Positions 23,457 through 56,341 of a stretch of 64,000 bases of DNA are shown here, one piece after another (position 1 is the stretch's first letter; each line of letters opens with the position of its first letter). The stretch spans positions 1 to 64,000 of the forward strand of contig PRDH01000019.1 of the NCBI GenBank assembly GCA_003345545.1, given 5' to 3'. Position numbers and translations under genes: made by a program. Below the pieces are notes generated by a model that saw only the letters and a list, made by a program, of their open reading frames with translations, did not search any database and was not told the DNA's origin. This stretch comes from Candidatus Thorarchaeota archaeon (GTDB lineage: Archaea; Asgardarchaeota; Thorarchaeia; Thorarchaeales; Thorarchaeaceae).

Positions 23457-24116
23457 GTGCATGTGACGTTGAGAATAGAACTCGTAGTGTTTGATGTCGA
23501 TGGGACGCTCACCCAGCACAGTAGCGTATGGTGGAGACTTCACGAGCTTTTCGGTACAACCAAGGAGGGTCGAGTCTACTTCGACCAGTATTTCGCTGGA
23601 GAAATCAGTTATCAACAATGGGCTGACTATGATGTAGCTCTCTGGAAAGGACAAGCAGTCAGCCGTGTGTTGAAAGTCGTACAAGACACGCGGCTTGTTG
23701 AGGGCGCCAAAGAAACTATCCAGACCCTACAAGATCATGACATCCACACAGCAATTCTTTCTGGCGGACTCGACATAATGGCCGAGGACATCGCGCGCAG
23801 GGTAGGAATTGAATTCGTCCTGACGAACAGACTTGTCCATAAGAATGGTTACCTGACAGGTACTGTTGAGAACGTTATCGGATGGGCTGAGAAAGCAAGT
23901 CATATTCAGAAGGTTCTTGACCACTTTGGTGTCGAGCGCGAACAGACCGCCTTTGTTGGTGATGGTAGGAATGACATGAGCGTCTTTGCTGTGGTCGGCT
24001 TCTCAATCGCCTTCAATCCCGCAGATCAGGAGGTAGCAAATGCAGCAACGGTCGCTGTGAAAGAGAGCGATCTTCGAGCAATCCTCCCCCATATCATATC
24101 GGGGTACCAGCGATGA
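23457..24116 (+). CDS. HAD-IB phosphoserine phosphatase-like hydrolase
   Basis: FDVDGTL, LSGG, K, GDGRND, IAFNP. Confidence 0.88.
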   Translation: MHVTLRIELVVFDVDGTLTQHSSVWWRLHELFGTTKEGRVYFDQYFAGEISYQQWADYDVALWKGQAVSRVLKVVQDTRLVEGAKETIQTLQDHDIHTAILSGGLDIMAEDIARRVGIEFVLTNRLVHKNGYLTGTVENVIGWAEKASHIQKVLDHFGVEREQTAFVGDGRNDMSVFAVVGFSIAFNPADQEVANAATVAVKESDLRAILPHIISGYQR

Positions 24117-25338: not shown

Positions 25339-26505
25339 TCATTTGAGATTCGTATATCGGGCTCCGCTCCCAGTATTGAGAAGAATGACATCTTCGTCAA
25401 AATCAATCGTACCTGCATCGATGAGATTCCTCAGGCCTGCAATCCCGACTGCACTCTCAGGACAGATATCCAATCCCTCCAACCTCGCAACCATGCGTCG
25501 GATTGGTTCGATGTCATGTTCCGCTACTGCTACAGCTCCGCCGCCTGAGTTTCTTATGGCGTTGAGAATCTGCCTTCCAGCGAAAGGACTGGGCACACGA
25601 AGACCGAGTGCCATGGTCTTTCCGTTCACCCAGGGCTCCAGATTGTCTGTTCCCTTCTCTATCGCTCGCACAACGGGAGCACATCCACCACTCTGGGCAG
25701 CATATATTCTTGGACGTTCACTTCCTACAAGGCCCAGAGTTTCAAGCTCCTCAAATGCTTTCCAAATGCCGATGATTGCTGTTCCACCACCAGTAGGACA
25801 GACTATTGCATCGGGGACCGACCAACCCATCTGCTCAGAGATTTCAAAACCAAGAGTCTTTTTTCCTTCTACTCTGTAGGGCTCCTTTGTTGTTGAAAGG
25901 TCTGTCCAATCACCGTTTCTTTTCCTCATTTCTTGTCCTGCGTCTGATATTGTACCGCGCACTCGAACTGTTTCGGCACCGAACAGCTCGCACTGTGTAA
26001 AGAAAGGTTCAGGAGTATCATCCGGCATGAAGATGTGCGCTGACACTCCAGCAGCCGCGCTATATGCGCTCGCAGACACAGCGGCATTGCCAGCTGAAGG
26101 CAGGGCGAAGCTCTTCGCTCCGAGTTCAAGGCTCTTGGATATAGCTGCGCTGAGTCCCCTATCCTTGAAACTCCCTGTTGGATTTTGGGCTTCATCCTTG
26201 ATTCTCAGCATCCTGAGACCCAAGTGCTTTCCCAGCTGTCTTGATAGCAGAAGTGGTGTCCATCCTTCACCAAGACTAATGACGTAAGATGGGGACTTCA
26301 CAGGCAGAAGTTGTGAATATCTCCACATCGAGTTAAGGTCTGAAGGGAACTCTCCGGAATCAATCTCCTCTTGGACGCTGCCCGTGTCATATACTGCAAA
26401 CAGGGGTGATCCACAGACGCAATATGTGCTGAGGTGGTCAGCAGAGTGCTCTCTTCTGCATTGCGGACATTTAAGGTGCGATATATGAGAGATCAATGAG
26501 TTCAC
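25339..26505 (-). CDS. thrC: Threonine synthase (PLP, fold type II)
   Basis: N-terminal Zn-ribbon, SLGEGWTPL, NPTGSFKDRG, SAGNA, PTGGG, CPES. Confidence 0.88.
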   Translation of the reverse strand: MNSLISHISHLKCPQCRREHSADHLSTYCVCGSPLFAVYDTGSVQEEIDSGEFPSDLNSMWRYSQLLPVKSPSYVISLGEGWTPLLLSRQLGKHLGLRMLRIKDEAQNPTGSFKDRGLSAAISKSLELGAKSFALPSAGNAAVSASAYSAAAGVSAHIFMPDDTPEPFFTQCELFGAETVRVRGTISDAGQEMRKRNGDWTDLSTTKEPYRVEGKKTLGFEISEQMGWSVPDAIVCPTGGGTAIIGIWKAFEELETLGLVGSERPRIYAAQSGGCAPVVRAIEKGTDNLEPWVNGKTMALGLRVPSPFAGRQILNAIRNSGGGAVAVAEHDIEPIRRMVARLEGLDICPESAVGIAGLRNLIDAGTIDFDEDVILLNTGSGARYTNLK

Positions 26506-26621: not shown

Positions 26622-27827
26622 ATGTATCTGGGCGAGCTCAAGCGGATAACGTTGCCCTTCACAGCCATCGTCGGCCTAGAAAAGCTAAAGCTAGCCCTAC
26701 TTCTAAACGGTGTGAATCCTTCTATCGGAGGCGTGCTCATCTCAGGTCCGAAAGGTACAGGGAAGACGACTGTTGTTCGAGCACTTGCTGATCTGCTCCC
26801 TGAAGTCGATGTGGTGAAAGACTGTCGTTTTGGCTGCAATCCGAGTACTCCGGATTTCTTCTGCGAAGAATGCAAGTCTCGTGTGTCAGGTGGTGCAGCG
26901 CTTGAATCTACCAGACGGAAGATGCGGGTTGTGAATCTGCCTCTATCGACCACTGAGGATCGCCTTATTGGTGCATTAGACATCGAGCAAGTCCTTCAGG
27001 AGGGGATTCGTGCACTCAAACCAGGGATACTTGCCGATGCGCATCGAAATGTTCTGTATGTTGATGAAGTGAACCTATTGCCAGATCACCTCGTTGATGA
27101 CTTCCTCGATGCCGCTGCGACAAAGGTCAACACGATTGAACGCGAAGGAATCTCTATTTCGCATCCCTCGGACTTTGTCCTTATAGGCACAATGAACCCA
27201 GAAGAAGGCGAGCTCCGACCGCAGCTATTAGATCGATTCGCTCTCCATGTTGCAATTGGCTCGAATCACTCAATCGAAGAACGGATGGAGCTTGTAAGAA
27301 GGAATCTTGAGTTTGAGAGAGACCCAGATGGATTTCGTGCACGCTGGTCGGATGCTCAGCAAGAGATGCGAGAAAGGGTCGTTCGTGCCAAAGAATCACT
27401 GGAAAGCGTAGAGCTAGACGATACGAACCTACGCGCCATAGCAATGGCCTGTGATGCATTAGAAGTCGATGGTGTTCGACCGGACATTGTGATTAGCAAG
27501 ACAGCAATTACACATGCCGCATTTCAAGGCCGCGCACAGGTCACTCTTGAAGACATGAAGCTTGCTTCGCAACTCGCCTTAAGTCATAGAACTCGTAGAG
27601 GTGGTCTCTTGGAGCCTCCCTCTTCTGACGATATTGATCGGGCAATAACAAAAGCGGTAGAAATTGCAAAGAAGAATGACCGCAGGAAATCACCCACTGA
27701 AGTTCCGAAGGAGGATGAAGAGCCCGCTGAGCAAGGAGAGCGGCGAAGCGGAGGTCGCTTTGGCCGGCAATCAAGCTTTGCTCAATTCGAAAGACAGGAG
27801 GGCAAAAAAAAACTCCCGGAAAAATAA
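26622..27827 (+). CDS. Mg/Co-chelatase subunit I-like AAA+ ATPase (0-frame product of a frameshifted chlD-like gene)
   Basis: [52 protein letters not shown]. Confidence 0.92.
27804..27812 (+). other. A9 slippery site (A_AAA_AAA), predicted -1 programmed frameshift joining the AAA+ ORF to the VWA ORF
   Basis: GGC AAA AAA AAA CTC CCG GAA AAA TAA in frame 0. The -1 frame is open from 27731 to the stop at 29302. Confidence 0.72.
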
Positions 27828-29302
27828 GAAATCCAGAGGGGAATCCCATCAAGGGCACAATATGTGCGGTGATGATGGTCGTTGTCTTCAGCTATTTTCT
27901 CTGGATTTTTGTAAGTCCGTTGAATTGGCTGTTTGGTTCCTGGATTCTTGAGTTTCCTCCTCTCCATGTCATCATTATTGACACCATCGTCTATATCCCT
28001 CTTATCTGGCGACTCGTTAGGAAATGGCTTGAAGTCATGACCCGGCGAAAGGGCGGACCTACAGCTGGAATCGACACAGTGGAACCAGGTCGCGCCTTGC
28101 CTGAATCTGGTGATGAGTGGGGACTTGCGACAAGACCCTATGTTCCAGAAAAGCCGAGTCTGATTACAGGACCAAAATCCGACATTAGAGAGTCTCCTTT
28201 TGGGCTGAACGATGATTTCTTTGTCAAAATGCCCGATATCGACACGGGAGAGGAGATCTTCGATAATGAAAAGCTCCGGATGAGAGCCATGATTCGTTCT
28301 AGAGTCACAACTGGGAACTGGATCAACAAACGAGTAGGTTCACGAGCAATGGGGTCTTTGAAGTCCTCAGGTGCAGTGAAACACGGACGGCCTATCCGCT
28401 CCCGAATGCCTAACCGAGAAATCGAGAGCATACATGTTACTTCAACAGTACTTGCAGCAATTGCTAGAACCGGCGATGCACAGCATTTGCCAATTCGAAT
28501 CACGCGTGGTGACCTTCGTGAGAACATGTTCGCTGGCAGGTGCCCTCTAACGATTATTCTTGTCATCGACGTAAGCCTATCAATGAAGGGCAGCATGGAG
28601 GAAGTCAGGCAGCTTCTCGAACGCATTGAAGGCGAAACACGTGGTTCCAAGGACCGGACCGGAATCATAGCCTTCAAGGATAGCGGAGCCGTGGAAGTTC
28701 AGGCTCCTACAACCAATTGGAATAAGATCTACAGAGCTCTGGGCCGACTGAGGATATCTGGTCTGACACCGCTTGCAGACGCTCTCCGAAAGGCGTTTGA
28801 AACTATCCAGAGAGAGCGAATGAGGAATCCTGATATCGAGCCTTTTGTCATGATTATCTCAGATTTCTCACCAAATATCCCGCTAGCTCAGTCCGTCGGA
28901 CCCGGTGACAGTCAGTATACACCCGTGCAAGATCTCATCAGGACTTCTAGAATGATGCGCAAGGCGAAGATTCGCTTCGCCGCTATCAATGTTGACCCGG
29001 AGCAGAGTAGATGGCCAAGATTCCTTAAGCGTCCTTATCATGAAGCGCTCGAACTAGCAGCAATGCTTAGAGCCAGGAAGGACGGTCTTGATGATCCAAT
29101 CGAAGCAGTTCTTGCAGTGGACGAGTTTAGGAGGTCTTTCGGTGCCTATCTCGTAGCTAGGGCCGGTGGCGGTCGAGCACACCTTTCACGAGAGCTCATG
29201 AAGGAGAAATCGATACTTCGGACTCTCTTGCATACTGGTAGAACTAGAACACGACTTCGTGAGGAAGACCTGAGTGAGATTGAAGCATATCTTCCAAAAT
29301 GA
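27812..29302 (+). CDS. ChlD-like C-terminal part: TM hairpin plus VWA domain (-1 frame)
   Basis: MIDAS DVSLSM, GLTPLA, ISDF and ChlD-like GRPIR..TVLAA..DLRE. Two hydrophobic helices at the start. The track start GTG 27869 lacks a clear RBS. Confidence 0.82.
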
Positions 29303-46328: not shown

Positions 46329-49019
46329 ATGACAGCTAATCCTCAAGATTGTCCATACCTTGGCAGTATTCGGGAGATGGCAAATGTGAGCAGGAAGAGC
46401 AGAAAAGATGTACAAGCGCAGAGTACTGTTGAAGCCATAAGAATGGCCTCTGCTTCAGTGTTGAGCACGACGACTGGCTTAGGCTATCCAGTTGGAAGTG
46501 CAAGAGGCGCTGGAAGCATGCTTGAACAGCATTCCGAAACAGTGTCCATGAGTATTGCACCTCTAATCTTCAACGTGCGTGATACCTTGAACTCGTCTGA
46601 AGGGTTGGAACTGCTCTCTATTGAGTGGAATCTCGAGAGAACTCCCGGCCCCGGAGTCTTGCCGGAACAGCTCATTGTTGTAGGCGGTTCTGAAGGTGGC
46701 GTCGGTTCTCACGTCTGTGTCCTGTGCTGGGAAAGGGGTGTCGTAGACCCGTTCAGGATAGATCAGTATGTGAAGGTCATCGCCAAGAAACTTGGCGATA
46801 TAGAGGCCGCTGTCATCAACAATGATCTCAACTACGACCTCGATGGCCTATCCGTTATCCGACGTTTTGCTGACCGCCTAAACAGCGTCTTGTTCGTAGA
46901 CATGCTTGACAGGCGTTTTCAGGGTACATGGGATTCACTTCAAGTCAAAGATGAACAGATGGCTGTCGAAGCCATCGCGAAAATGTCAACGTATGATGAT
47001 TTTACGCTTGTTCCTCCAGGCCTAAAGATCGCTCGGCGCAATAGCCTTGAATTCAGGCTGCCGTCGTCGTCTAAGGAAGATTTCTTGGATCAGTTTCAAC
47101 ATCGAGTATTGACTCCCAGCGCAATAGAGATGCTGACAAAGACAGTCCCTGAAACAGGACAAGCAATACTTAACGAGTTGAATACCTATGCATATGCGAG
47201 GGAGGAGGCTGATGTTGCCGAGGGGACAATCTCAGTTCTGAAAGAATACCTCAAGAGAGACACCGTGAAGCTGTCAGACCTCCAGTCCATTAAGAAAGCA
47301 ACAGGTGAGTTTGTCGGTCATCTCAATGATACCGTCGACTCGCTTGAGTCAATTGTTGATCAACACTCGAACTCTGGGAAGGCTTTGACTATTGCAGGAC
47401 ATAGAGACGCTCTTCTTTCAGATATTGATGCAAACCACGAACGATTCGATGGTATCAATGGCACACTTGCTCACATGCTAATTGTTCAAATCATGAAGTC
47501 TATTGGGCGCGAATCATTTGGAGTGGAGGATATTCGTGCATGGCAACTACGAAGCGCTCTAAGCTATGCCATTGCATATGCAAAGAGAGTTGCACAGTAC
47601 TTTGCTGAGGAACTCGATCACTACCTGATTGCTTCTGCCGCAAGAAAGGCATTCTTTGTCGCGCTCCGTGATTTTCGTCAAGAAACCGTACAGGTTGGAA
47701 TGGATTCAACTGACCTGATGCTTTTCGAGAAGTTCTATGCTGAGGTTCAATCTCAGCTCAATGCATCCTTCTCGAGAAAATCGTACCAAGGTGTGCAGTA
47801 TCATGATTTCATTCAGCTAATGGACACGATTACGCGGGAAATAATCGAAACCTTCAGGCATATCGATGTATGGAATCTAATCAATTTCTCCGACGTTGCG
47901 GATATTGCTCGTTCTGAGATACAAAAGAGACATGCAGGCCAGTCAAGTGACGGAGCTCTAATGTCGGATGGCAATGCGCTCATGAGCCTACTGAACGCGT
48001 TTCAGAACACTGTTTCTGATATTATCCCTGATGTGGCCGACACTATTCTATCAAAATCTCTTATTCGAAAGATGATTGAGAAGATTAGGTCTGATGGCAC
48101 AGGTCTGGGTAATGAATTGGCATCTGCGATTGAAAGTGTCGGCGAGAAGTCCCAGGAGTGGAAAAGAGAGGCTGTGGCCTGGGTAGAAGGCTTTCGAGAT
48201 AGTGTAGACCCCACACAATCCACCCCCGTGAGTCTGCTTGCGCTGTTGCAGTATATCCATGAGCTATTGGACCAAGTGGTATCACCAAGTGCAATGGCTG
48301 ATCGAGTAAAGGCAGAGGCTGACGCGAAAGAAGCTGTCTACCAAGCCAAAGTCAATGATTGGCAATTCGCCTGTAAAGAAATCGAAAAGGAGAATGTGTC
48401 AATTCGACAACGAAACAACAGACGTGAGGAGCTCATTGCAGAAGCCACAAGGCAGTTTGAAATGGAGATGTCTGCATTTGAGCAGCAAGTCCGTGATTAT
48501 CAAGAAAAGGTTGAGCAGAGAGAGTCTCTGGCAGCAAGTGCAGCTGGAGCGCAGGTTACATTACCAGCATTACCTCTGGAACCAGTTCGTCCTTCTCCTC
48601 TAGGGCCGCGAGTTGACAAAATAAGAGGAAACAATCCAACTGAGCTTGAGAAATCCTTCCCGCCTGAACCGCAACCTGAACCAACACTTCGTTACTACAC
48701 TGAGTTGCGAGACCTTCTATACGATAAGCTGAGTGAGATGAAAGAACGTGAAAAGAGCATGGAAGAGACATTTGCTCGGAGAGTCTTACGGCTTCAGGCA
48801 GAAGGCATGGGCGCCATTGGAGAGATTGACATCAATATCGGTGATGATTTTCTGCAGCATCTGATGGACTCGCGAATTCGTACTCTGGGCAGGCTACTTC
48901 CTCGTATCTCTCGCGTTTTCTTGAGGAATCCGAAGATACCAGGCCTCCTCTATCTTGTATCATATGCGTACTATAAAGAGGGTTTGACTATGTCGATTGG
49001 GAGCACGTTTCTGAGGTGA
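46329..49019 (+). CDS. Large hypothetical protein: longin-like N-terminus, helical body, coiled coil and Pro-rich segment
   Basis: 896-aa open frame with no recognisable enzyme motif. Start may be ATG 46377. The longin call is from secondary-structure pattern only. Confidence 0.75.
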   Translation: MTANPQDCPYLGSIREMANVSRKSRKDVQAQSTVEAIRMASASVLSTTTGLGYPVGSARGAGSMLEQHSETVSMSIAPLIFNVRDTLNSSEGLELLSIEWNLERTPGPGVLPEQLIVVGGSEGGVGSHVCVLCWERGVVDPFRIDQYVKVIAKKLGDIEAAVINNDLNYDLDGLSVIRRFADRLNSVLFVDMLDRRFQGTWDSLQVKDEQMAVEAIAKMSTYDDFTLVPPGLKIARRNSLEFRLPSSSKEDFLDQFQHRVLTPSAIEMLTKTVPETGQAILNELNTYAYAREEADVAEGTISVLKEYLKRDTVKLSDLQSIKKATGEFVGHLNDTVDSLESIVDQHSNSGKALTIAGHRDALLSDIDANHERFDGINGTLAHMLIVQIMKSIGRESFGVEDIRAWQLRSALSYAIAYAKRVAQYFAEELDHYLIASAARKAFFVALRDFRQETVQVGMDSTDLMLFEKFYAEVQSQLNASFSRKSYQGVQYHDFIQLMDTITREIIETFRHIDVWNLINFSDVADIARSEIQKRHAGQSSDGALMSDGNALMSLLNAFQNTVSDIIPDVADTILSKSLIRKMIEKIRSDGTGLGNELASAIESVGEKSQEWKREAVAWVEGFRDSVDPTQSTPVSLLALLQYIHELLDQVVSPSAMADRVKAEADAKEAVYQAKVNDWQFACKEIEKENVSIRQRNNRREELIAEATRQFEMEMSAFEQQVRDYQEKVEQRESLAASAAGAQVTLPALPLEPVRPSPLGPRVDKIRGNNPTELEKSFPPEPQPEPTLRYYTELRDLLYDKLSEMKEREKSMEETFARRVLRLQAEGMGAIGEIDINIGDDFLQHLMDSRIRTLGRLLPRISRVFLRNPKIPGLLYLVSYAYYKEGLTMSIGSTFLR

Positions 49020-49020
49020 T

Positions 49021-51468
49021 TTGATGGCAAGTTCTTGGGTACTTAAGACACGACAGGCAAGCGAGGCTGGCAAAGAGATCCTGCTGCGGGAGGCTCTTGT
49101 TGCTCATATGCGAAGTACGAGAGACAGGCAGCTCTTCACTGGGATATTGACTGAAACTCGGCCGCTAAAGGACGTCTTTTCGTTTTTTGCATCTTTCTAT
49201 CTGCACAGCTATCAGGGAATAAGATTGCTAGAGGCCGCAGAATCTCCTGAACTTACTGCTGATGGTAAAGATGACCTTGGTCAAGAGGAACGCCATCAAT
49301 TGGAGCTAGAAGTGCGTAAGCTCTTTGGCGATAAGCAACGTGAGGAGATTCACACAACGCGTATCATGAGTGAACTCGCGATACGTTTCTGTGATGAATT
49401 GGGAGGCAAGCTGTCTTCCTCCCCAGATCTGCGCGAGAAGGTGCTCTCTCTCCTAAATGAGTATCTTCAGAGAATTCCATCAGAGTACTCTCCTAATCAC
49501 GACATTGACTTCGTTGTTGAAGTCACTGGCTGGGGTACACAATGGCGTGATGAGCTCTACACGAAGGCGTCAGGATTGAAAGAGAGTGCGCTCTCGTTGA
49601 GAGAGGAGTTATTGAGAGACCATCCTTCAGAAGTGCCTGAAACAACCGTCCTAAGAATGGGTCTTGAACGCATCCATGGTCGAGCTGAGTTTGCAAGGGG
49701 TCGGCTATCTGATGCTATTATTCCTTCTCGCAATTGGGATGGTATTGCAGATGCCATCATTGGACGTTTCTGCAGGGATGCGGACGAAGTCAAGTGTCTG
49801 AAGCAAGCACATGAAATCCGACTCGCCCTGCTGAAGGCAGTTGAAGAGAAGTACGATACGCCTACTACGATCGAGGACTATGAGCAAAGGCTAGGATCTG
49901 TTGTCGCCGGTCCAATCGCTGACATCCTGTCCTCTGATTCATCTCTGGTACTAGGCATATTATCCAGTCTTCTTGCTATTGATTCAGATGAACTGAAGGC
50001 GCAGCTTCGTCGGAAGGGTATTGACGATTTGTCCATCATTGGAGAAGGCCTAAGAGCGCTCGCAGATGTTGTTGAAGACGCCCCATCAGGTCCACAGATC
50101 AGCAAGCAAGAGATGGAGCTCCTTGAGCGTTCTCTGAAGACTCTAGAGAAGCTTGAGCACACTCTCGAACATCCGGTGAAAGGACTGTTGAAGGCTCGGG
50201 GCCTTCGAGCCTCAGAACTTGACAAGATTTCCGTGGATCTCCTTGTTAAGGATCGGAAAAGCTTGGTGGGGATTGAAGTTGAGGTTCTTGATGAGTTGGC
50301 TAAGAAGATGCGAGTTCCGCCTCCGGAAGAGGTCAAGAGGCTTGTTGAAATACGGGGCCAAGTAAAAAGTGGCGCCTTAAGTACGCTGGGCATATCTTCA
50401 GCCCGTGATTTTAGCAGACAACGCGTCGAGGAAGAAACAGTCAGGTCAATCAAACTTGACATAATCTGGCACCTCACGACTAGCATTCTAACAAACCTCA
50501 CTAGGATAGTTGAGTCCTATATTCGGTCGAAGCAAGACCTGCTTCGTGTCAAGGCACTATTGAAGAGTATATACGAAGACACAGACCCAAGTCTGCAGTT
50601 TCTAAGAGAAGAGATTCTGGTTGATTTGGCTGCCATGCGTATCCATGAGTTTAAGGTAGTACACCCTGAACTTGATACAGCAAATATCTGCACATGGATG
50701 CATGCACGTCTCTCGAGTAAGGATATGACGGCTGCACGAAAGGATCTTGATGCTACTCCGAGTCCTGCTTTCGAGGGTATTATCGACAAGCCGCTTGAGA
50801 TGAGTGGTCTAGAGTATGATAACTATGCTATTGCCTTTGATATAATGCAGCGTTTCTTGAAACAGGAGCGCCTCGAAAAGCTTGCCAAAGATGAGTACGC
50901 GTTTGAAACCAAGCAAAAAGAGCAAATCCTCCTCGAGTCAAAACGGGAGTCTCTCGATGTTCTGACGTACTTGCATAACAAGGCTCAGACCGTGTTTCGT
51001 GCCATAGGCCGTGTAGGAACCAAGGGTCTGGAATGGTCTCAGAGCGATACCTCAAAGTGTTCTAACCTACTGGCATACTACATCAAAACTGGTCGTGGAA
51101 GGCTCATCTGTTCTGCATGTGGCACTGTTTCAAAGGAGAAGAAATGCCCACAACATGGCACATCCTTCATCAAGGAAGCAAATGACATGGATAATCTAGC
51201 GATATTCATGATGAGAGCGAACTATGAAATTAAAGATGGTCTTGTTGGGAGGAGTGCTGAACAGATGCCTTGGGACAAGGCAAAATCGAGCATCGAGCGC
51301 GAAATAGGCATCCTGAAGCGAAAGGGCAAATTGACCTCAAAGGCCAATCTAAAGGAACTTCTCCCTGGAGAGATCAACTATGTGATTGGTCCTGTTATTT
51401 GCGAAATCATTGGCAAGTACTTCAACGAGTCACTAGTCTATGCAGCTCGTAGAGCCGAAGTGGCTTAA
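49021..51468 (+). CDS. Large hypothetical alpha-helical protein with C-terminal Zn site (CSACG..CPQHG)
   Basis: 815-aa ORF starting 1 nt after the upstream stop. Confidence 0.78.
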   Translation: MMASSWVLKTRQASEAGKEILLREALVAHMRSTRDRQLFTGILTETRPLKDVFSFFASFYLHSYQGIRLLEAAESPELTADGKDDLGQEERHQLELEVRKLFGDKQREEIHTTRIMSELAIRFCDELGGKLSSSPDLREKVLSLLNEYLQRIPSEYSPNHDIDFVVEVTGWGTQWRDELYTKASGLKESALSLREELLRDHPSEVPETTVLRMGLERIHGRAEFARGRLSDAIIPSRNWDGIADAIIGRFCRDADEVKCLKQAHEIRLALLKAVEEKYDTPTTIEDYEQRLGSVVAGPIADILSSDSSLVLGILSSLLAIDSDELKAQLRRKGIDDLSIIGEGLRALADVVEDAPSGPQISKQEMELLERSLKTLEKLEHTLEHPVKGLLKARGLRASELDKISVDLLVKDRKSLVGIEVEVLDELAKKMRVPPPEEVKRLVEIRGQVKSGALSTLGISSARDFSRQRVEEETVRSIKLDIIWHLTTSILTNLTRIVESYIRSKQDLLRVKALLKSIYEDTDPSLQFLREEILVDLAAMRIHEFKVVHPELDTANICTWMHARLSSKDMTAARKDLDATPSPAFEGIIDKPLEMSGLEYDNYAIAFDIMQRFLKQERLEKLAKDEYAFETKQKEQILLESKRESLDVLTYLHNKAQTVFRAIGRVGTKGLEWSQSDTSKCSNLLAYYIKTGRGRLICSACGTVSKEKKCPQHGTSFIKEANDMDNLAIFMMRANYEIKDGLVGRSAEQMPWDKAKSSIEREIGILKRKGKLTSKANLKELLPGEINYVIGPVICEIIGKYFNESLVYAARRAEVA

Positions 51469-51574
51469 ATCTTGGCTCTGTACACAAGATTCTGAGTGCA
51501 TCATGTCCCAGGCAAAATAGTGCAGTAGCGAAGCCCATTTATACCAACCTGCTCGGACTGGCATTGGTGATTTC

Positions 51575-52972
51575 ATGAGTAGATTCGTCCCAAAAGGAGT
51601 CATGCCGGCCCTCGTAACACCATTCACCAGAGATGGCGACATCAACGAAGAAGGCTTCAGACAGGTTATCGACTACACTATCAGTAAAGGTGCAACTGGA
51701 GTCGTACCAGCTGGAACGACCGGGGAATTCTCGTATATGCGTACTGAGGAGCGTAAGAAACTACTGAAGCTCACTGTGGAGTATGTTGACGGTCGCGTTC
51801 CCATTATTGCTGGCACCGGCCAAAACAGCACCAGAGCGACTGTACTCTTGACCAAGTACGCTGCAGACATCGGATGCGATGCAGCCCTCGTGATTTCACC
51901 CTACTATCTCCGGCCTGGTGACAAGGGATACTATGAGCACTATGCAACAGTGGCACGTCAAGCTGACCTGCCAGTGATTCTGTACAATCTCCCCCAATGC
52001 ACTCTCGGAGTTCTCAATTCCAATGTAGTAGAAGATCTCTCTGAGATAGACAATGTTGTTGGCATAAAGGATAGCAGCGGTAATATGCCATATCTTCTAG
52101 AATTGCTCGAGAAAGTGCACGGCAGGATAGAAGTCATAATCGGAGCTGACGAGTGCTTCCTTTCTGCAGTAGCTGCTGGAGTGAAGGCGGCGATTCTTGC
52201 TACAGCAAATCTCATTCCCCATATTTGGCTTGAAATCATGCACAAGGTCCAGAAGGGAAAGATCGAAGAGGCTGCGAAGCTGCAGAACTCTGTGCAGACA
52301 TTAGCACGTCTTATACTGAAGAACGGTGCTGCGCCTCCTATTAAGGCAGGTCTACGCATGCTGGGCATCAATGCAGGCAAGAGTAGGATGCCACTTGATA
52401 CTGGAGGCACGCTCACTCCTGAAACCAAAGAAGAAATCCGGCTTGAGCTCCAGAAACTTGGAGTCCTAGAAGAACTCAAGCATCCTTCAATCCAGCGAAG
52501 CATCCAGATATTTGAGGCATTGCTGCAGCAAGGTTTCACTATAGATGAGACGTCGAATGTCAAACAGAGCTCCGGTTCGAATAATACTGTTTCTGTGGCC
52601 ATCGCCACAGGAAGCAAGAATAGCCCTCTGGGCGGAACCTTCGTCAAGCTTCTCACAATGCCAAAAATAGGTCACGAAGCCCTCATGGTTATTCTGGAGC
52701 CCAACCTGGCTGTCCGTCCCAGTAGCATCATGTTTCCAATGAGGAGAATCGAATCGATGCGACAGGCATCCCTATTCTATGGTCCAGTTCAGTCTGGAGC
52801 TGCGCGAGCTATTGCTTCCTATCTTGAGAAAGGCAAGATTCCAAATCAGTCAATAGAAGATGATGTGATGGTCATGGCATTGGACGTTGATTTGAATTCG
52901 AAGGACCGCCGACAAGTCGTTGCAGCGACACAAGAGGCTGTTGAAAAGGCCCTAGCTGGCATATGGAGGTAG
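51575..52972 (+). CDS. DapA-family class I aldolase fused to degenerate formaldehyde-activating enzyme (Fae) domain, copy A
   Basis: PALVTPF, GTTGE, LYNLP, GIKDSSG. C-terminal GHEALMVILEPNLAVRP..LFYGPVQSGAARA is Fae-like. Confidence 0.85.
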   Translation: MSRFVPKGVMPALVTPFTRDGDINEEGFRQVIDYTISKGATGVVPAGTTGEFSYMRTEERKKLLKLTVEYVDGRVPIIAGTGQNSTRATVLLTKYAADIGCDAALVISPYYLRPGDKGYYEHYATVARQADLPVILYNLPQCTLGVLNSNVVEDLSEIDNVVGIKDSSGNMPYLLELLEKVHGRIEVIIGADECFLSAVAAGVKAAILATANLIPHIWLEIMHKVQKGKIEEAAKLQNSVQTLARLILKNGAAPPIKAGLRMLGINAGKSRMPLDTGGTLTPETKEEIRLELQKLGVLEELKHPSIQRSIQIFEALLQQGFTIDETSNVKQSSGSNNTVSVAIATGSKNSPLGGTFVKLLTMPKIGHEALMVILEPNLAVRPSSIMFPMRRIESMRQASLFYGPVQSGAARAIASYLEKGKIPNQSIEDDVMVMALDVDLNSKDRRQVVAATQEAVEKALAGIWR

Positions 52973-52977
52973 GCATC

Positions 52978-54456
52978 ATGTACAGTGGTAGCTATCGTTT
53001 TCAAGGCGTCTATCCAGCGTTAGTCACACCGTTTGACGAGAACGGTGTAAATGAAAAGCAGTACAGAAACCTCATTGAGTATACGATCAAGGCCGGCGCC
53101 ACGGGTATTGTTCCCTGCGGGACAACCGGAGAATTCACCAGCATGAGGTTTGATGAAAAAGTTGAAGCCATCAGAATTGCCTGTGAAGTGGCAAAGGACC
53201 GTGTTCCCGTTCTTGCAGGGACTGGGGCTGCCTACACAGGCGATGCAATCAAGCTGACACGACGAGCTTCCGAGCTAGGAGCTTCAGGAGCTCTGGTGGT
53301 TTCTCCATACTTCTTGAGACCTTCAGACAAGGAGATATTCGAGCATTTTGAGAAGATTGCGAATAACAGCGACATTCCCATCTTCATTTATAATATCCCT
53401 CAGGTAACTGGTGTTCCCATCCATTGGACGCTTGTCGATGGTCTGCGGGAGATTGATGGAATTGCAGGACTGAAGGATTCAAGTGGTGACCTGATTAATC
53501 TGACGACAATCCTTGTTCGCAAACCCGAGAGCTTCCAAGTAGTTGTCGGTCACGATGAGGTAGCACTTCCTGCTCTCGCATCAGGTTGTGATGGGGCTAT
53601 ACTCGCAAGTGCCAACGTTTTTCCCGATAGGTACATCAAGATGCAGACTGCCTTGGCGAGTGGCTATCTCAAGGAAGCCATGATTATCCAGCGAAGCATC
53701 CAGAAGACAGTCCGCATCTTTGTGAACAGTGGTGGAGGAATGGCAATAAAGGCGGCCCTGAATATGATGGGTATCCCTGTCGGAAAGGCGAGGCCCCCTC
53801 TCCAGATTGGTGATTCTCTCAGCTATGCTGACCTTGATGAACTGAGGGCTTGCCTTGAGGATCTGCAAATGATTCCAAGAGGGCCAGTCACATTCAAGAT
53901 GAGGGGCAACTCAGTAGTTGCAGAGAACTACCCCAAGGCAGTGGGGCAAGTACCCGACACTGTGGCAGACTTGACTCTCCTTCATGGAGAGTCGTTATTC
54001 GGTTCAAATACTGAAGTGGCTCATGTCGACCTTCTCCTTGGAATAAGAGATGGCCCAATAAAGGAGGCTCTTGCCAATGCAGGAAAGATTGCTGATGACC
54101 GGCATCCGTCCAATGTGATAAAGGATCTTGAGCTCACAACTGTATTTGCTCCGACAGTGACCATCACATCTGAGAAGCACAAGAAGCTGGTCTACGATGT
54201 CGCCCAGAAGGCGGTCAAAGATGCAGTCAAGCGTACCATTACAGATATGATTATCCCAGAAGAGCTAATCCCTGACCTTGTGATTGCTGTGAATGTCTTT
54301 GTTCACCCGAGCGCAGCGAATCCAAGGCGAGTGCACATCAATAATTTCATTGCTGTTCGCCATGCCATCCGACGTGCAATTGAAGGTCGTCAGAGTGTTG
54401 ATGAGATAATCGCGCGTAAGGATTCTGCCAGGCATCCATTTGCCTATAACCCATAA
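52978..54456 (+). CDS. DapA-family class I aldolase fused to Fae domain, copy B
   Basis: PALVTPF, GTTGE, IYNIP, GLKDSSG. C-terminal GESLFG..EVAHVDLLLG..VTI..AQKAV..VFVHP..NNF..RHPF. ATG 52978 follows GGAGGT. Confidence 0.88.
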   Translation: MYSGSYRFQGVYPALVTPFDENGVNEKQYRNLIEYTIKAGATGIVPCGTTGEFTSMRFDEKVEAIRIACEVAKDRVPVLAGTGAAYTGDAIKLTRRASELGASGALVVSPYFLRPSDKEIFEHFEKIANNSDIPIFIYNIPQVTGVPIHWTLVDGLREIDGIAGLKDSSGDLINLTTILVRKPESFQVVVGHDEVALPALASGCDGAILASANVFPDRYIKMQTALASGYLKEAMIIQRSIQKTVRIFVNSGGGMAIKAALNMMGIPVGKARPPLQIGDSLSYADLDELRACLEDLQMIPRGPVTFKMRGNSVVAENYPKAVGQVPDTVADLTLLHGESLFGSNTEVAHVDLLLGIRDGPIKEALANAGKIADDRHPSNVIKDLELTTVFAPTVTITSEKHKKLVYDVAQKAVKDAVKRTITDMIIPEELIPDLVIAVNVFVHPSAANPRRVHINNFIAVRHAIRRAIEGRQSVDEIIARKDSARHPFAYNP

Positions 54457-55213: not shown

Positions 55214-56341
55214 GTGCTAGAGTCTAGAGTGCTCTCACTTCTGAGGGATTTGGTGGCAACGAGCTCAGAAAATCCTCCTGGCCGTGAAGACAAAGTCGCC
55301 AAGGTGCTTCGCGAGCATATGGAATCGCATGGAATCGGCTGTGTGTCAGTTGGTCCAAGCAGGCGCCCAAATCTGATATTCTCAAGTCATGATGGTCGCC
55401 ACGCCGACTTGGTCATGCATGGTCATATGGATACTGTGCCTGTTGGCAGGCCAGAGAGTTGGTCTCACGATCCCTTCGGGTCGGAGATTGTTGATGGGGC
55501 GTTCTATGGAAGAGGAGCCTGTGATATGAAAGGTCCACTCGCGGCACTCGCAGAGACCCTTATCATCTATGCTGAGGAACATCATCATCAGCCTCTTCTT
55601 GTGCTCAACACGTCAGATGAGGAGAGAGTCTTTTCAGGCGCAGAAAATGTGGTCAAGAGTGGGGAACTTGCTGGGGTACGATACGGAGTCTGTGCAGAAC
55701 CCACCAATTTGCAGGTCCTTGCTGGGGAGAAGGGCCTATTCTGGTCAAGGATTGTGGCGACTGGAAAATCCGCCCATGGTTCGCGTCCGGAGCTGGGAGT
55801 GAATGCAATCAGCGCCTGCATTGACGCAATTGATGTTCTACTTTCTGATGAATACCCATATGAAAAAGACCGACTGCTAGGCAAACCCACAGTAAACGTT
55901 GGATTAATCCGAGGCGGTATCATGGTCAATGTTGTTCCAGATAGCTGCGAAGCGCAGCTGGATTTTCGGACTGCCAAAGGGCAGAGTCCCGAATCTCTCA
56001 TGAAGTTGATGAACGAACGGCTGAACTCAGCAGGCCTATCTAATCGAGTAAAAGTTGAGTATATGCATGGAAAGCCAGCGGTCTTGACACCCCATGATTC
56101 AGTCATAGTCCAAGTCGCAGTTGAGGAAGTAGAGAGAGCGACCGGAGTTCATTCCGCACTGGGAGCTGCAACATATGGCACAGACTGCTCCGTCCTGCAG
56201 ACGAAGGCTGGAATCCTCAATGTCATCTGTGGCCCCGGGATGATAGAGCATGCTCACCAGCCTGATGAGCATATCAGTCTGAATCAGTTGTACAAGGCTG
56301 TTGACGTCTTTCTAGGAATAGCTCGGAGATTCGATCAATGA
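55214..56341 (+). CDS. M20 family metallo-amidohydrolase (ArgE/DapE-like)
   Basis: HGHMDTVP, GRGACDMKG, DEE, AEPT, GKSAHGS, GTD, GPG..AHQPDE. Confidence 0.93.
   Translation: MLESRVLSLLRDLVATSSENPPGREDKVAKVLREHMESHGIGCVSVGPSRRPNLIFSSHDGRHADLVMHGHMDTVPVGRPESWSHDPFGSEIVDGAFYGRGACDMKGPLAALAETLIIYAEEHHHQPLLVLNTSDEERVFSGAENVVKSGELAGVRYGVCAEPTNLQVLAGEKGLFWSRIVATGKSAHGSRPELGVNAISACIDAIDVLLSDEYPYEKDRLLGKPTVNVGLIRGGIMVNVVPDSCEAQLDFRTAKGQSPESLMKLMNERLNSAGLSNRVKVEYMHGKPAVLTPHDSVIVQVAVEEVERATGVHSALGAATYGTDCSVLQTKAGILNVICGPGMIEHAHQPDEHISLNQLYKAVDVFLGIARRFDQ

Follow-up and report, generated by a model that had tools for sequence, protein, structure and literature searches.

Adjacent aldolase–Fae fusions of a Thorarchaeota archaeon carry complementary parts of a Fae pocket and may join pyruvate to a one-carbon unit

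INTRODUCTION

This report concerns two adjacent genes, here called A and B, in positions 1 to 64,000 of contig PRDH01000019.1 from a Candidatus Thorarchaeota archaeon; this 64,000-nucleotide stretch is referred to as the window. Each gene encodes an aldolase barrel followed by a Fae-like domain, and the closest described enzyme of that kind is archaeal Fae-Hps (NF009833; 5,6,7,8-tetrahydromethanopterin hydro-lyase / 3-hexulose-6-phosphate synthase), likewise a formaldehyde-handling aldolase fused to Fae. By analogy, the presumed logic would be shared, with formaldehyde passed between an aldol reaction and tetrahydromethanopterin (H4MPT) or another pterin without being released. The construction is different. 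The A and B barrels are class I enzymes of the dihydrodipicolinate synthase/N-acetylneuraminate lyase (DHDPS/NAL) type, which work through a Schiff-base lysine, and they lie N-terminal to Fae, whereas Hps has the OMPDC fold and is C-terminal. The donor would be pyruvate in place of ribulose-5-phosphate, the Fae site is split over two paralogous chains, and members of the family are also found in hosts that lack H4MPT markers. Fae of Methylorubrum extorquens (1Y5Y/1Y60; PF08714; EC 4.2.1.147) belongs to the same domain family as the C-terminal parts of A and B, in which its His22 loop, EPNLxxKP, GPAQ and HPF arm can be recognised. In contrast to that enzyme, no single A or B chain has all of the motifs, A being truncated and B loop-deleted, both are fused to an aldolase, and the two probably make an A:B contact of the dimer type instead of a homopentamer ring.

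Two further comparisons are relevant. The pyruvate aldolases of the DHDPS/NAL superfamily (DapA, NanA, YagE/YjhH, KDG aldolase and HOGA1) have in common with A and B the PF00701 barrel, GTTGE, the tyrosine of YNxP and the Schiff-base lysine of KDS; A and B differ from them in the absence of Arg138, in the replacement of DapA's GDD by GHDE, in the C-terminal Fae-like domain and in residing in a genome without the diaminopimelate (DAP) pathway. The reaction that we propose for A and B, in turn, is the one on which the synthetic homoserine cycle relies. There, the conversion of pyruvate and formaldehyde into 4-hydroxy-2-oxobutanoate (HOB) is an exploited promiscuous activity of class II aldolases such as YfaU/RhmA, and HOB is transaminated to homoserine, which then yields threonine (PMC7918591). 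Those catalysts are class II metal aldolases that use free formaldehyde in engineered Escherichia coli, whereas A and B would constitute a natural class I enzyme equipped with a carrier-binding domain. Literature searches found no publication on a fusion of Fae with DHDPS/DapA or on the aldolase–Fae family, in agreement with the first-pass annotation, a note made from the sequence of the window, which knew of no description of such a system.

RESULTS

Two translationally coupled aldolase–Fae genes

Genes A (51575–52972, + strand, 465 aa) and B (52963–54456, + strand) encode paralogous, translationally coupled 2-oxoacid aldolase barrels of the class I, Schiff-base DHDPS/NAL type fused to Fae-like domains. 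The first-pass annotation had described two adjacent paralogues of this architecture, and both open reading frames (ORFs) are indeed in place and match PF00701 and PF08714. Across the family the fusion takes two forms, either one gene whose Fae domain is complete or an A-then-B pair with complementary Fae losses. Within the 2.69-Mb Thorarchaeota (Asgard) assembly, estimated to be 93% complete, A and B are the only Fae-family matches.

The reading frame of B can start at ATG 52963, giving 497 aa, or at ATG 52978, giving 492 aa. The stop codon of A occupies 52970–52972, ATG 52978 is the next start codon, and a GGAGGT that reads as the Shine-Dalgarno sequence of B (52965–52970, +) lies within the last codons of A, 7 nt 5' of ATG 52978. 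As B orthologues (66–93% identity) are 491–492 aa long, B most likely starts at 52978 rather than 52963 and is probably translationally coupled to A. A TTTATA about 32 nt 5' of the start of A (51538–51543, +) is a candidate archaeal TATA box. Orthologues of A across the Thorarchaeota share 66–89% identity, and A itself is a 100% match to cluster P0121.

The barrel of A (aa 7–288; 51593–52438, +) matches PF00701 with an E-value of 1.6e-79 over profile positions 3–282 of 289, and that of B (aa 13–281; 52999–53805, +) with 8.6e-70 over positions 2–272. The signature residues of the superfamily are the Schiff-base lysine (K161 in E. coli), Tyr133 in YNxP and Thr44/Thr45 in GTTGE. These elements are kept in A (GTTGEF, Tyr137 in YNLPQC, Lys165 in KDSSG), in B (GTTGEF, Tyr143 in YNIPQV, Lys171 in KDSSG) and across the A-type, B-type and single-copy members of the family.

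Are A and B simply the DapA of lysine biosynthesis, as annotated? Public databases label all relatives '4-hydroxy-tetrahydrodipicolinate synthase' because both proteins pass the dapA equivalog cut-off (TIGR00674, 222 and 230 bits against 206), and the solved structures nearest to the barrels are DHDPS. Arg138 of DapA is the residue that binds the carboxylate of aspartate semialdehyde. At this position A has Cys and the relatives have Cys, Val or Ala, whereas plain DHDPS sequences have Arg; B has Val where the DHDPS of Bacillus anthracis carries the Arg of YNVPGR. The genome gave no PF05173 match for dapB, and its best TIGR01048 match for lysA scored 84 bits, under the cut-off of 298, at the completeness stated above. 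The DAP pathway, moreover, has no use for a C-terminal Fae fusion. The loss of Arg138 together with the absence of dapB and lysA outweighs the TIGR00674 score and supports the view, already taken in the first-pass annotation, that A and B are not lysine-pathway DapA and that the database label is wrong; a genuine DapA function strikes us as wholly improbable. Compared with the N-acetylneuraminate lyase subfamily, characterised by GSTGE and GxDE, both barrels contain GHDE but have GTTGE in place of GSTGE, and NF003164 and TIGR00683 scores are far under their cut-offs. A third DHDPS-family gene in the genome (contig C47:46001-46855; L005:1486-2403, − strand; 305 aa) lacks YNxP, reading VLYKKGP, and adjoins a citrate-synthase-like gene. 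It is not a canonical dapA and may encode a dehydratase like KdgD or a different non-DapA member of the family.

The Fae-like domains have lost complementary parts of the pocket

The C-terminal domains of both proteins match the Fae profile PF08714 (cut-off 27 bits), as had been anticipated. The domain of A (aa 337–461; 52583–52957, +) scores 94 bits over profile positions 11–135 of 159, and that of B (aa 342–493; 53986–54441, +) scores 101 bits over positions 2–158. Against the Fae-Hps model NF009833 (cut-off 274 bits) the Fae part is the only one matched, with 75 and 92 bits. Alignment to M. extorquens Fae (1Y5Y) gives E-values of 2e-11 for A and 3e-18 for B, and identity to characterised Fae is about 30%.

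This alignment reveals which parts of the fold each chain has kept. B retains GE followed by EVAHVD, in which His354 corresponds to His22 and Asp356 follows, as well as GP, VFVHP, NN and the C-terminal arm ARHPF with His491; a deletion of about five residues replaces the EPNLxxKP loop, and YDVAQ stands where Fae has FGPAQ. A shows the opposite pattern. It retains GHEAL and ILEPNLAVRP (Glu375, Pro376, Asn377 and Leu378) together with YGPVQ (Gln406), carries Ser at the position of His22 and ends before the C-terminal arm. In Fae, His22 and Gln88 are residues of the pocket, and the site lies between adjacent subunits. The full set of pocket motifs (His22 loop, EPNLxxKP loop, GPAQ with Gln88, and HPF arm) is thus present in neither chain and complete across the two combined.

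The same complementary pattern recurs in 11 A–B pairs from Thorarchaeota, Chloroflexota, Spirochaetota, Methanomassiliicoccales and other archaea, while the single-copy fusions of Bathyarchaeia and Loki-like Asgards keep all Fae motifs. Conservation follows this division: in A the retained segment scores 0.79 and the degenerate ones 0.46–0.50, and in B the corresponding values are 0.71–0.72 and 0.41–0.55. Across phyla, all B proteins share AH.DL (His22 and Asp24) and the C-terminal arm without variation, and the A proteins do so for EPNL..P and GP.Q (Gln88). On these alignments the reciprocal degeneration of the two Fae domains, which the first-pass annotation had pointed out, is to be regarded as real and old.

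The idea that the retained halves come together was also examined by structure prediction, with B residues 330–497 and A residues 322–465 modelled from alignments of 36 rows each. The predicted A-Fae/B-Fae complex reached an ipSAE of 0.82, the best of three controls 0.00; 58 of 80 solved complexes pass the mark used for this score, as do 2 of 110 mismatched pairs, and these counts apply only roughly here since own alignments were used. Model runs agreed in at least 83% of contacts, with partner pLDDT of at least 88. The B side of the modelled interface comprises 341–345 (GESLF), His354, Asp356, the GP turn at 364–366 and the arm at 477–493, including 489–493 with RHPF, and the A side comprises 373–381 (ILEPNLAVR) and 402–407 (YGPVQS). 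In other words, the interface is predicted to be formed by the complementary retained motifs, and the degenerate segments of both chains fall outside it. The model supports binding of A to B in a geometry like that of two neighbouring subunits of the Fae ring that form one complete pocket. As A and B each hold half of the Fae pocket, they probably work only together, and we consider a heteromer with a composite Fae site, as envisaged in the first-pass annotation, to be the probable state of the two proteins on the combined sequence and model evidence.

Conservation and descent of the pair

A-then-B pairs on the same strand were found in 78 of the 86 genomes of the Thorarchaeota family, in all 16 genera. 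Whenever a single contig carries the two, they are adjacent in the order A then B, in line with the cooperation of the chains proposed in the first-pass annotation. Among species-representative genomes, Bathyarchaeia, Loki-like Promethearchaeota and Borrarchaeum have single-copy fusions, and A-then-B pairs are found outside the Thorarchaeota in Anaerolineae and other Chloroflexota, one metagenome-assembled genome (MAG) of Spirochaetota, one MAG of Methanomassiliicoccales and unclassified archaea. In a maximum-likelihood tree all fusions are monophyletic with respect to plain DHDPS (support 99), and the A-type sequences form a clade (99) with the single-copy fusions as its sister group (97). 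The subtree of A mirrors that of B, which indicates that inheritance or transfer has involved both genes jointly.

Two other Asgard families, f5 and f28, have two adjacent aldolase–Fae genes each (G005:C65:11323-14187; G299:C135:11109-14004), so that, within the phylum, a paired arrangement is not limited to Thorarchaeota. In genus g16 and in some genomes elsewhere, reported open frames of about 1000 aa were considered as possible A–B gene fusions and rejected, as the DNA shows A and B in one frame with one stop between them. This configuration, with exactly one intervening stop, is seen in several Thorarchaeota genomes (G391, G392, G394-G396, G328, G334; L105-L111).

Pterin, homoserine and threonine genes in the hosts

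The genome that carries the window contains Mch, which shows that the H4MPT pathway is present; F420-dependent Mtd (PF01993) was not found in it, and no Hps scored above cut-off. Other Asgard families mostly carry canonical Fae-Hps (E about 1e-70). The Thorarchaeota have the A/B pair only (E about 1e-30), with neither canonical Fae nor Hps.

Only 3 of 85 Thorarchaeota genomes gave a match to homoserine dehydrogenase (PF00742), against 14 of 14 control genomes. Four further Asgard families with the fusion gave none (0/3, 0/12, 0/19 and 0/3 genomes), and the enzyme is present in most families without the fusion; the genomes are related and not independent samples, and all such co-occurrence counts are descriptive only. 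Despite the near-absence of this enzyme, the Thorarchaeota keep threonine synthase. The thrC of the window (25339–26505, − strand) scores 484 bits with the NF006050 equivalog, above the cut-off of 303, and is a true threonine synthase gene. It lies apart from the pair, and its product is a possible downstream consumer of homoserine phosphate. At 23457–24116 (+) the window also encodes a HAD-IB phosphoserine-phosphatase-like protein, just under the SerB and archaeal phosphoserine-phosphatase-like cut-offs, with a weak match to ThrH. ThrH is a phosphoserine phosphatase/homoserine phosphotransferase, which makes the HAD-IB protein a candidate enzyme for the missing phosphorylation of homoserine.

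A pterin-carried C1 unit and an enamine nucleophile could also serve a hydroxymethyltransferase that acts on another 2-oxoacid, for instance an analogue of ketopantoate hydroxymethyltransferase (PanB), or some other C1-accepting reaction, and the domain logic would be the same. Canonical PanB, however, is present in 36 of the 41 Thorarchaeota genomes sampled, this one included, which disfavours a ketopantoate-type role, and DHDPS-family enzymes are typically specific for pyruvate. We therefore hold this alternative to be very unlikely, if less so than a DapA function.

A conserved neighbour, protein X

Comparison of gene neighbourhoods across phyla yielded one recurrent neighbour of the family and no other recurrent neighbour of the A–B pair. 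This protein, here called X, is extremely conserved, is about 430 aa long, belongs to no Pfam or NCBIfam family, has at least 8000 relatives, all labelled 'hypothetical', and shows about 65% identity between archaea and Chloroflexota. It is present in Thorarchaeota; in the genome studied here it is encoded at contig C81:110900-112162 (L112:6892-8172), and relatives lie at L029:5807-7087, L053:4328-5596 and L116:6537-7820. X adjoins the aldolase–Fae fusion in three phyla (Bathyarchaeia, Loki-like Asgards and some Anaerolineae). In Asgard family f22 both fusion and X occur in 79 genomes, the fusion alone in 4, X alone in 2 and neither in 50. Where Asgards lack Fae, X is the first gene of an operon that also comprises homoserine dehydrogenase, AOR, a PatB-type C-S lyase and a gene resembling aspartate aminotransferase. 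Its two contexts, beside the fusion and in the homoserine-dehydrogenase operon, converge on four-carbon, homoserine-type metabolism. X was considered as an obligate partner of the fusion and rejected in that role, since it is present in only one of five non-Asgard hosts, is absent from the fusion-bearing families f4 and f14 and is present in f8 and f11 without Fae.

Structure searches assigned no function to X. The AF2 model of X has a pLDDT of 71, Foldseek against the PDB returned nothing at E ≤ 0.001, and the VIA-wide and Atlas searches gave generic TIM-barrel matches only (enolase superfamily, Z 9.5; pterin-binding MeTr, Z 7.5–8; Peptidase_U32-like). A language-model atlas search with X was uninformative. 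A generic TIM-barrel-like C-terminal half, as predicted, is all that can be assigned.

Other genes of the window

Directly 5' of A lie two genes (46329–49019 and 49021–51468, +) for large proteins of 896 and 815 aa with a charged, helix-rich look and no Pfam match; the same two genes also precede the A–B pair on another Thorarchaeota contig (L024:1-5099). About 750 nt 3' of B, at 55214–56341 (+), is an M20 deacylase of the ArgE/DapE family. It falls under every equivalog cut-off, the best being acetylornithine deacetylase with 210 against 298 bits, in a genome without the DAP pathway. Further upstream, 26622–29302 (+) contains two neighbouring genes that resemble the ATPase (ChlI/BchI-like) and vWA (ChlD-like) parts of Mg-/Co-chelatase, both under the equivalog cut-offs.

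DISCUSSION

Based on these observations, we propose a model for the function of the paired aldolase–Fae fusions. The His loop and C-terminal arm of B would pack onto the EPNL loop and GPxQ helix of A, much like adjacent subunits of the Fae pentamer, which would create one composite pterin/formaldehyde pocket per A:B pair and leave two unused faces free to decay. The fusion of Fae to an aldolase suggests formaldehyde as the aldehyde partner, by analogy with archaeal Fae-Hps, and formaldehyde combined with a pyruvate-type class I aldolase leads to HOB. The enzyme would therefore interconvert pyruvate and a C1 unit at the level of formaldehyde with HOB, the keto acid of homoserine. In this reaction the nucleophile would be the enamine of pyruvate on the barrel lysine, and the C1 unit would be passed to or from a tetrahydropterin, which may be H4MPT in Thorarchaeota and is probably another carrier in hosts without H4MPT. 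Taken as a whole, from the paired fusions through the composite site to the chemistry, we judge this explanation to have an even chance of being correct; the chemistry by itself, drawn by analogy, falls slightly short of that.

In which direction would the reaction run? In Thorarchaeota the physiological direction may be synthesis of the homoserine/threonine skeleton, which appears likely because homoserine dehydrogenase is nearly absent while threonine synthase is kept. The broader proposition, that Thorarchaeota, several other Asgard lineages and Bathyarchaeia lineages build the skeleton of homoserine, and hence of threonine, from pyruvate and a pterin-bound C1 unit instead of from aspartate, is one that we put forward tentatively and hold to be doubtful. 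The same enzyme might work catabolically, splitting HOB derived from homoserine, methionine or other C4 compounds into pyruvate and formaldehyde, the latter being trapped on a pterin by the composite Fae site for oxidation or C1 supply. The reaction is reversible and Fae-Hps of methanogens runs in the formaldehyde-releasing direction; the X operon, with its aminotransferase, homoserine dehydrogenase, AOR and PatB-type C-S lyase, looks catabolic; and Thorarchaeota are described as fermenters of peptides and amino acids. Yet the retention of thrC in genomes that mostly lack homoserine dehydrogenase points to a need for making homoserine, and no source of HOB was identified. The link from amino-acid catabolism to C1 metabolism drawn in the first-pass annotation is thereby weakened, as the genomic pattern of the Thorarchaeota fits a homoserine-making role at least equally well, and we consider catabolic use unlikely, though it deserves far more weight than the PanB-like alternative.

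A number of points weigh against the model that we favour, interconversion of pyruvate plus a C1 unit and HOB at a composite Fae site. Outside the Asgards, the check covered five hosts of the pair (three Chloroflexota, one Spirochaetota and one Methanomassiliicoccales). Homoserine dehydrogenase coexists with the pair in 5/5 of them and with the fusion in 35 of the 83 f22 genomes that carry it, counts that also speak for catabolic use. A strict replacement of homoserine dehydrogenase by the fusion was for this reason rejected: the pattern holds at the level of families and fails in f22, where 35 genomes have both, and in all five non-Asgard hosts. Nor did any canonical homoserine kinase score above cut-off in the genus. 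Mch and RFAP synthase were each found in 0/5 of the same hosts, and H4MPT is accordingly not the universal carrier. This also weakens the proposal of the first-pass annotation in respect of H4MPT.

Other reservations concern the proteins themselves. Both Fae domains lie under the equivalog cut-off of NCBIfam TIGR03126 (86.7 and 114.8 bits against 118). The high score of the predicted complex may merely reflect likeness to the Fae pentamer, which has already been solved, and the score refers to the pairing of A with B. GHDE in both barrels is similar to GxDE, the sugar-binding motif of N-acetylneuraminate lyases, and could mean an aldehyde larger than formaldehyde and hydroxylated. Each mechanistic step beyond the domain content is one that we infer.

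Several of these points would also be accommodated if the Fae-like domains had no part in formaldehyde or pterin chemistry and acted as heterodimerisation or regulatory ligand-binding modules, with the aldolase acting on another 4-hydroxy-2-oxo acid or on a 2-keto-3-deoxy sugar acid. The sub-threshold TIGR03126 scores, the distance of the family from characterised Fae, the sugar-lyase-like GHDE and the hosts that lack Mch and RFAP synthase are all compatible with that role. Against it, the canonical pocket is kept across phyla, with His22, Asp24 and the arm in B and EPNL..P and Gln88 in A, which is unexpected for a purely structural module, and the single-copy members hold a complete Fae domain though their genomes also encode Fae-Hps. 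On balance we regard such modules as improbable, to about the same degree as catabolic use.

What are the implications of a divided Fae pocket? Whatever the substrate, A and B represent a clean, phylogenetically replicated partition of the site of an oligomeric enzyme between paralogues after duplication. An apparently functional Fae-type pocket, as read from the conserved residues, in hosts without H4MPT raises the question of which carrier binds there. Hundreds of 'DapA' entries in databases are wrong, and predictions of the lysine pathway in Asgard archaea are distorted by them. If the chemistry is as proposed for the A/B pair, this would be the first natural enzyme dedicated to forming HOB from pyruvate and a C1 unit, a conversion achieved so far only via promiscuous aldolases in engineered formaldehyde assimilation, and if the homoserine reading also holds, it would be a natural counterpart to the step on which the synthetic homoserine cycle hinges. 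Models of amino-acid and C1 metabolism would then have to be revised for very abundant sediment archaea and for Chloroflexota.

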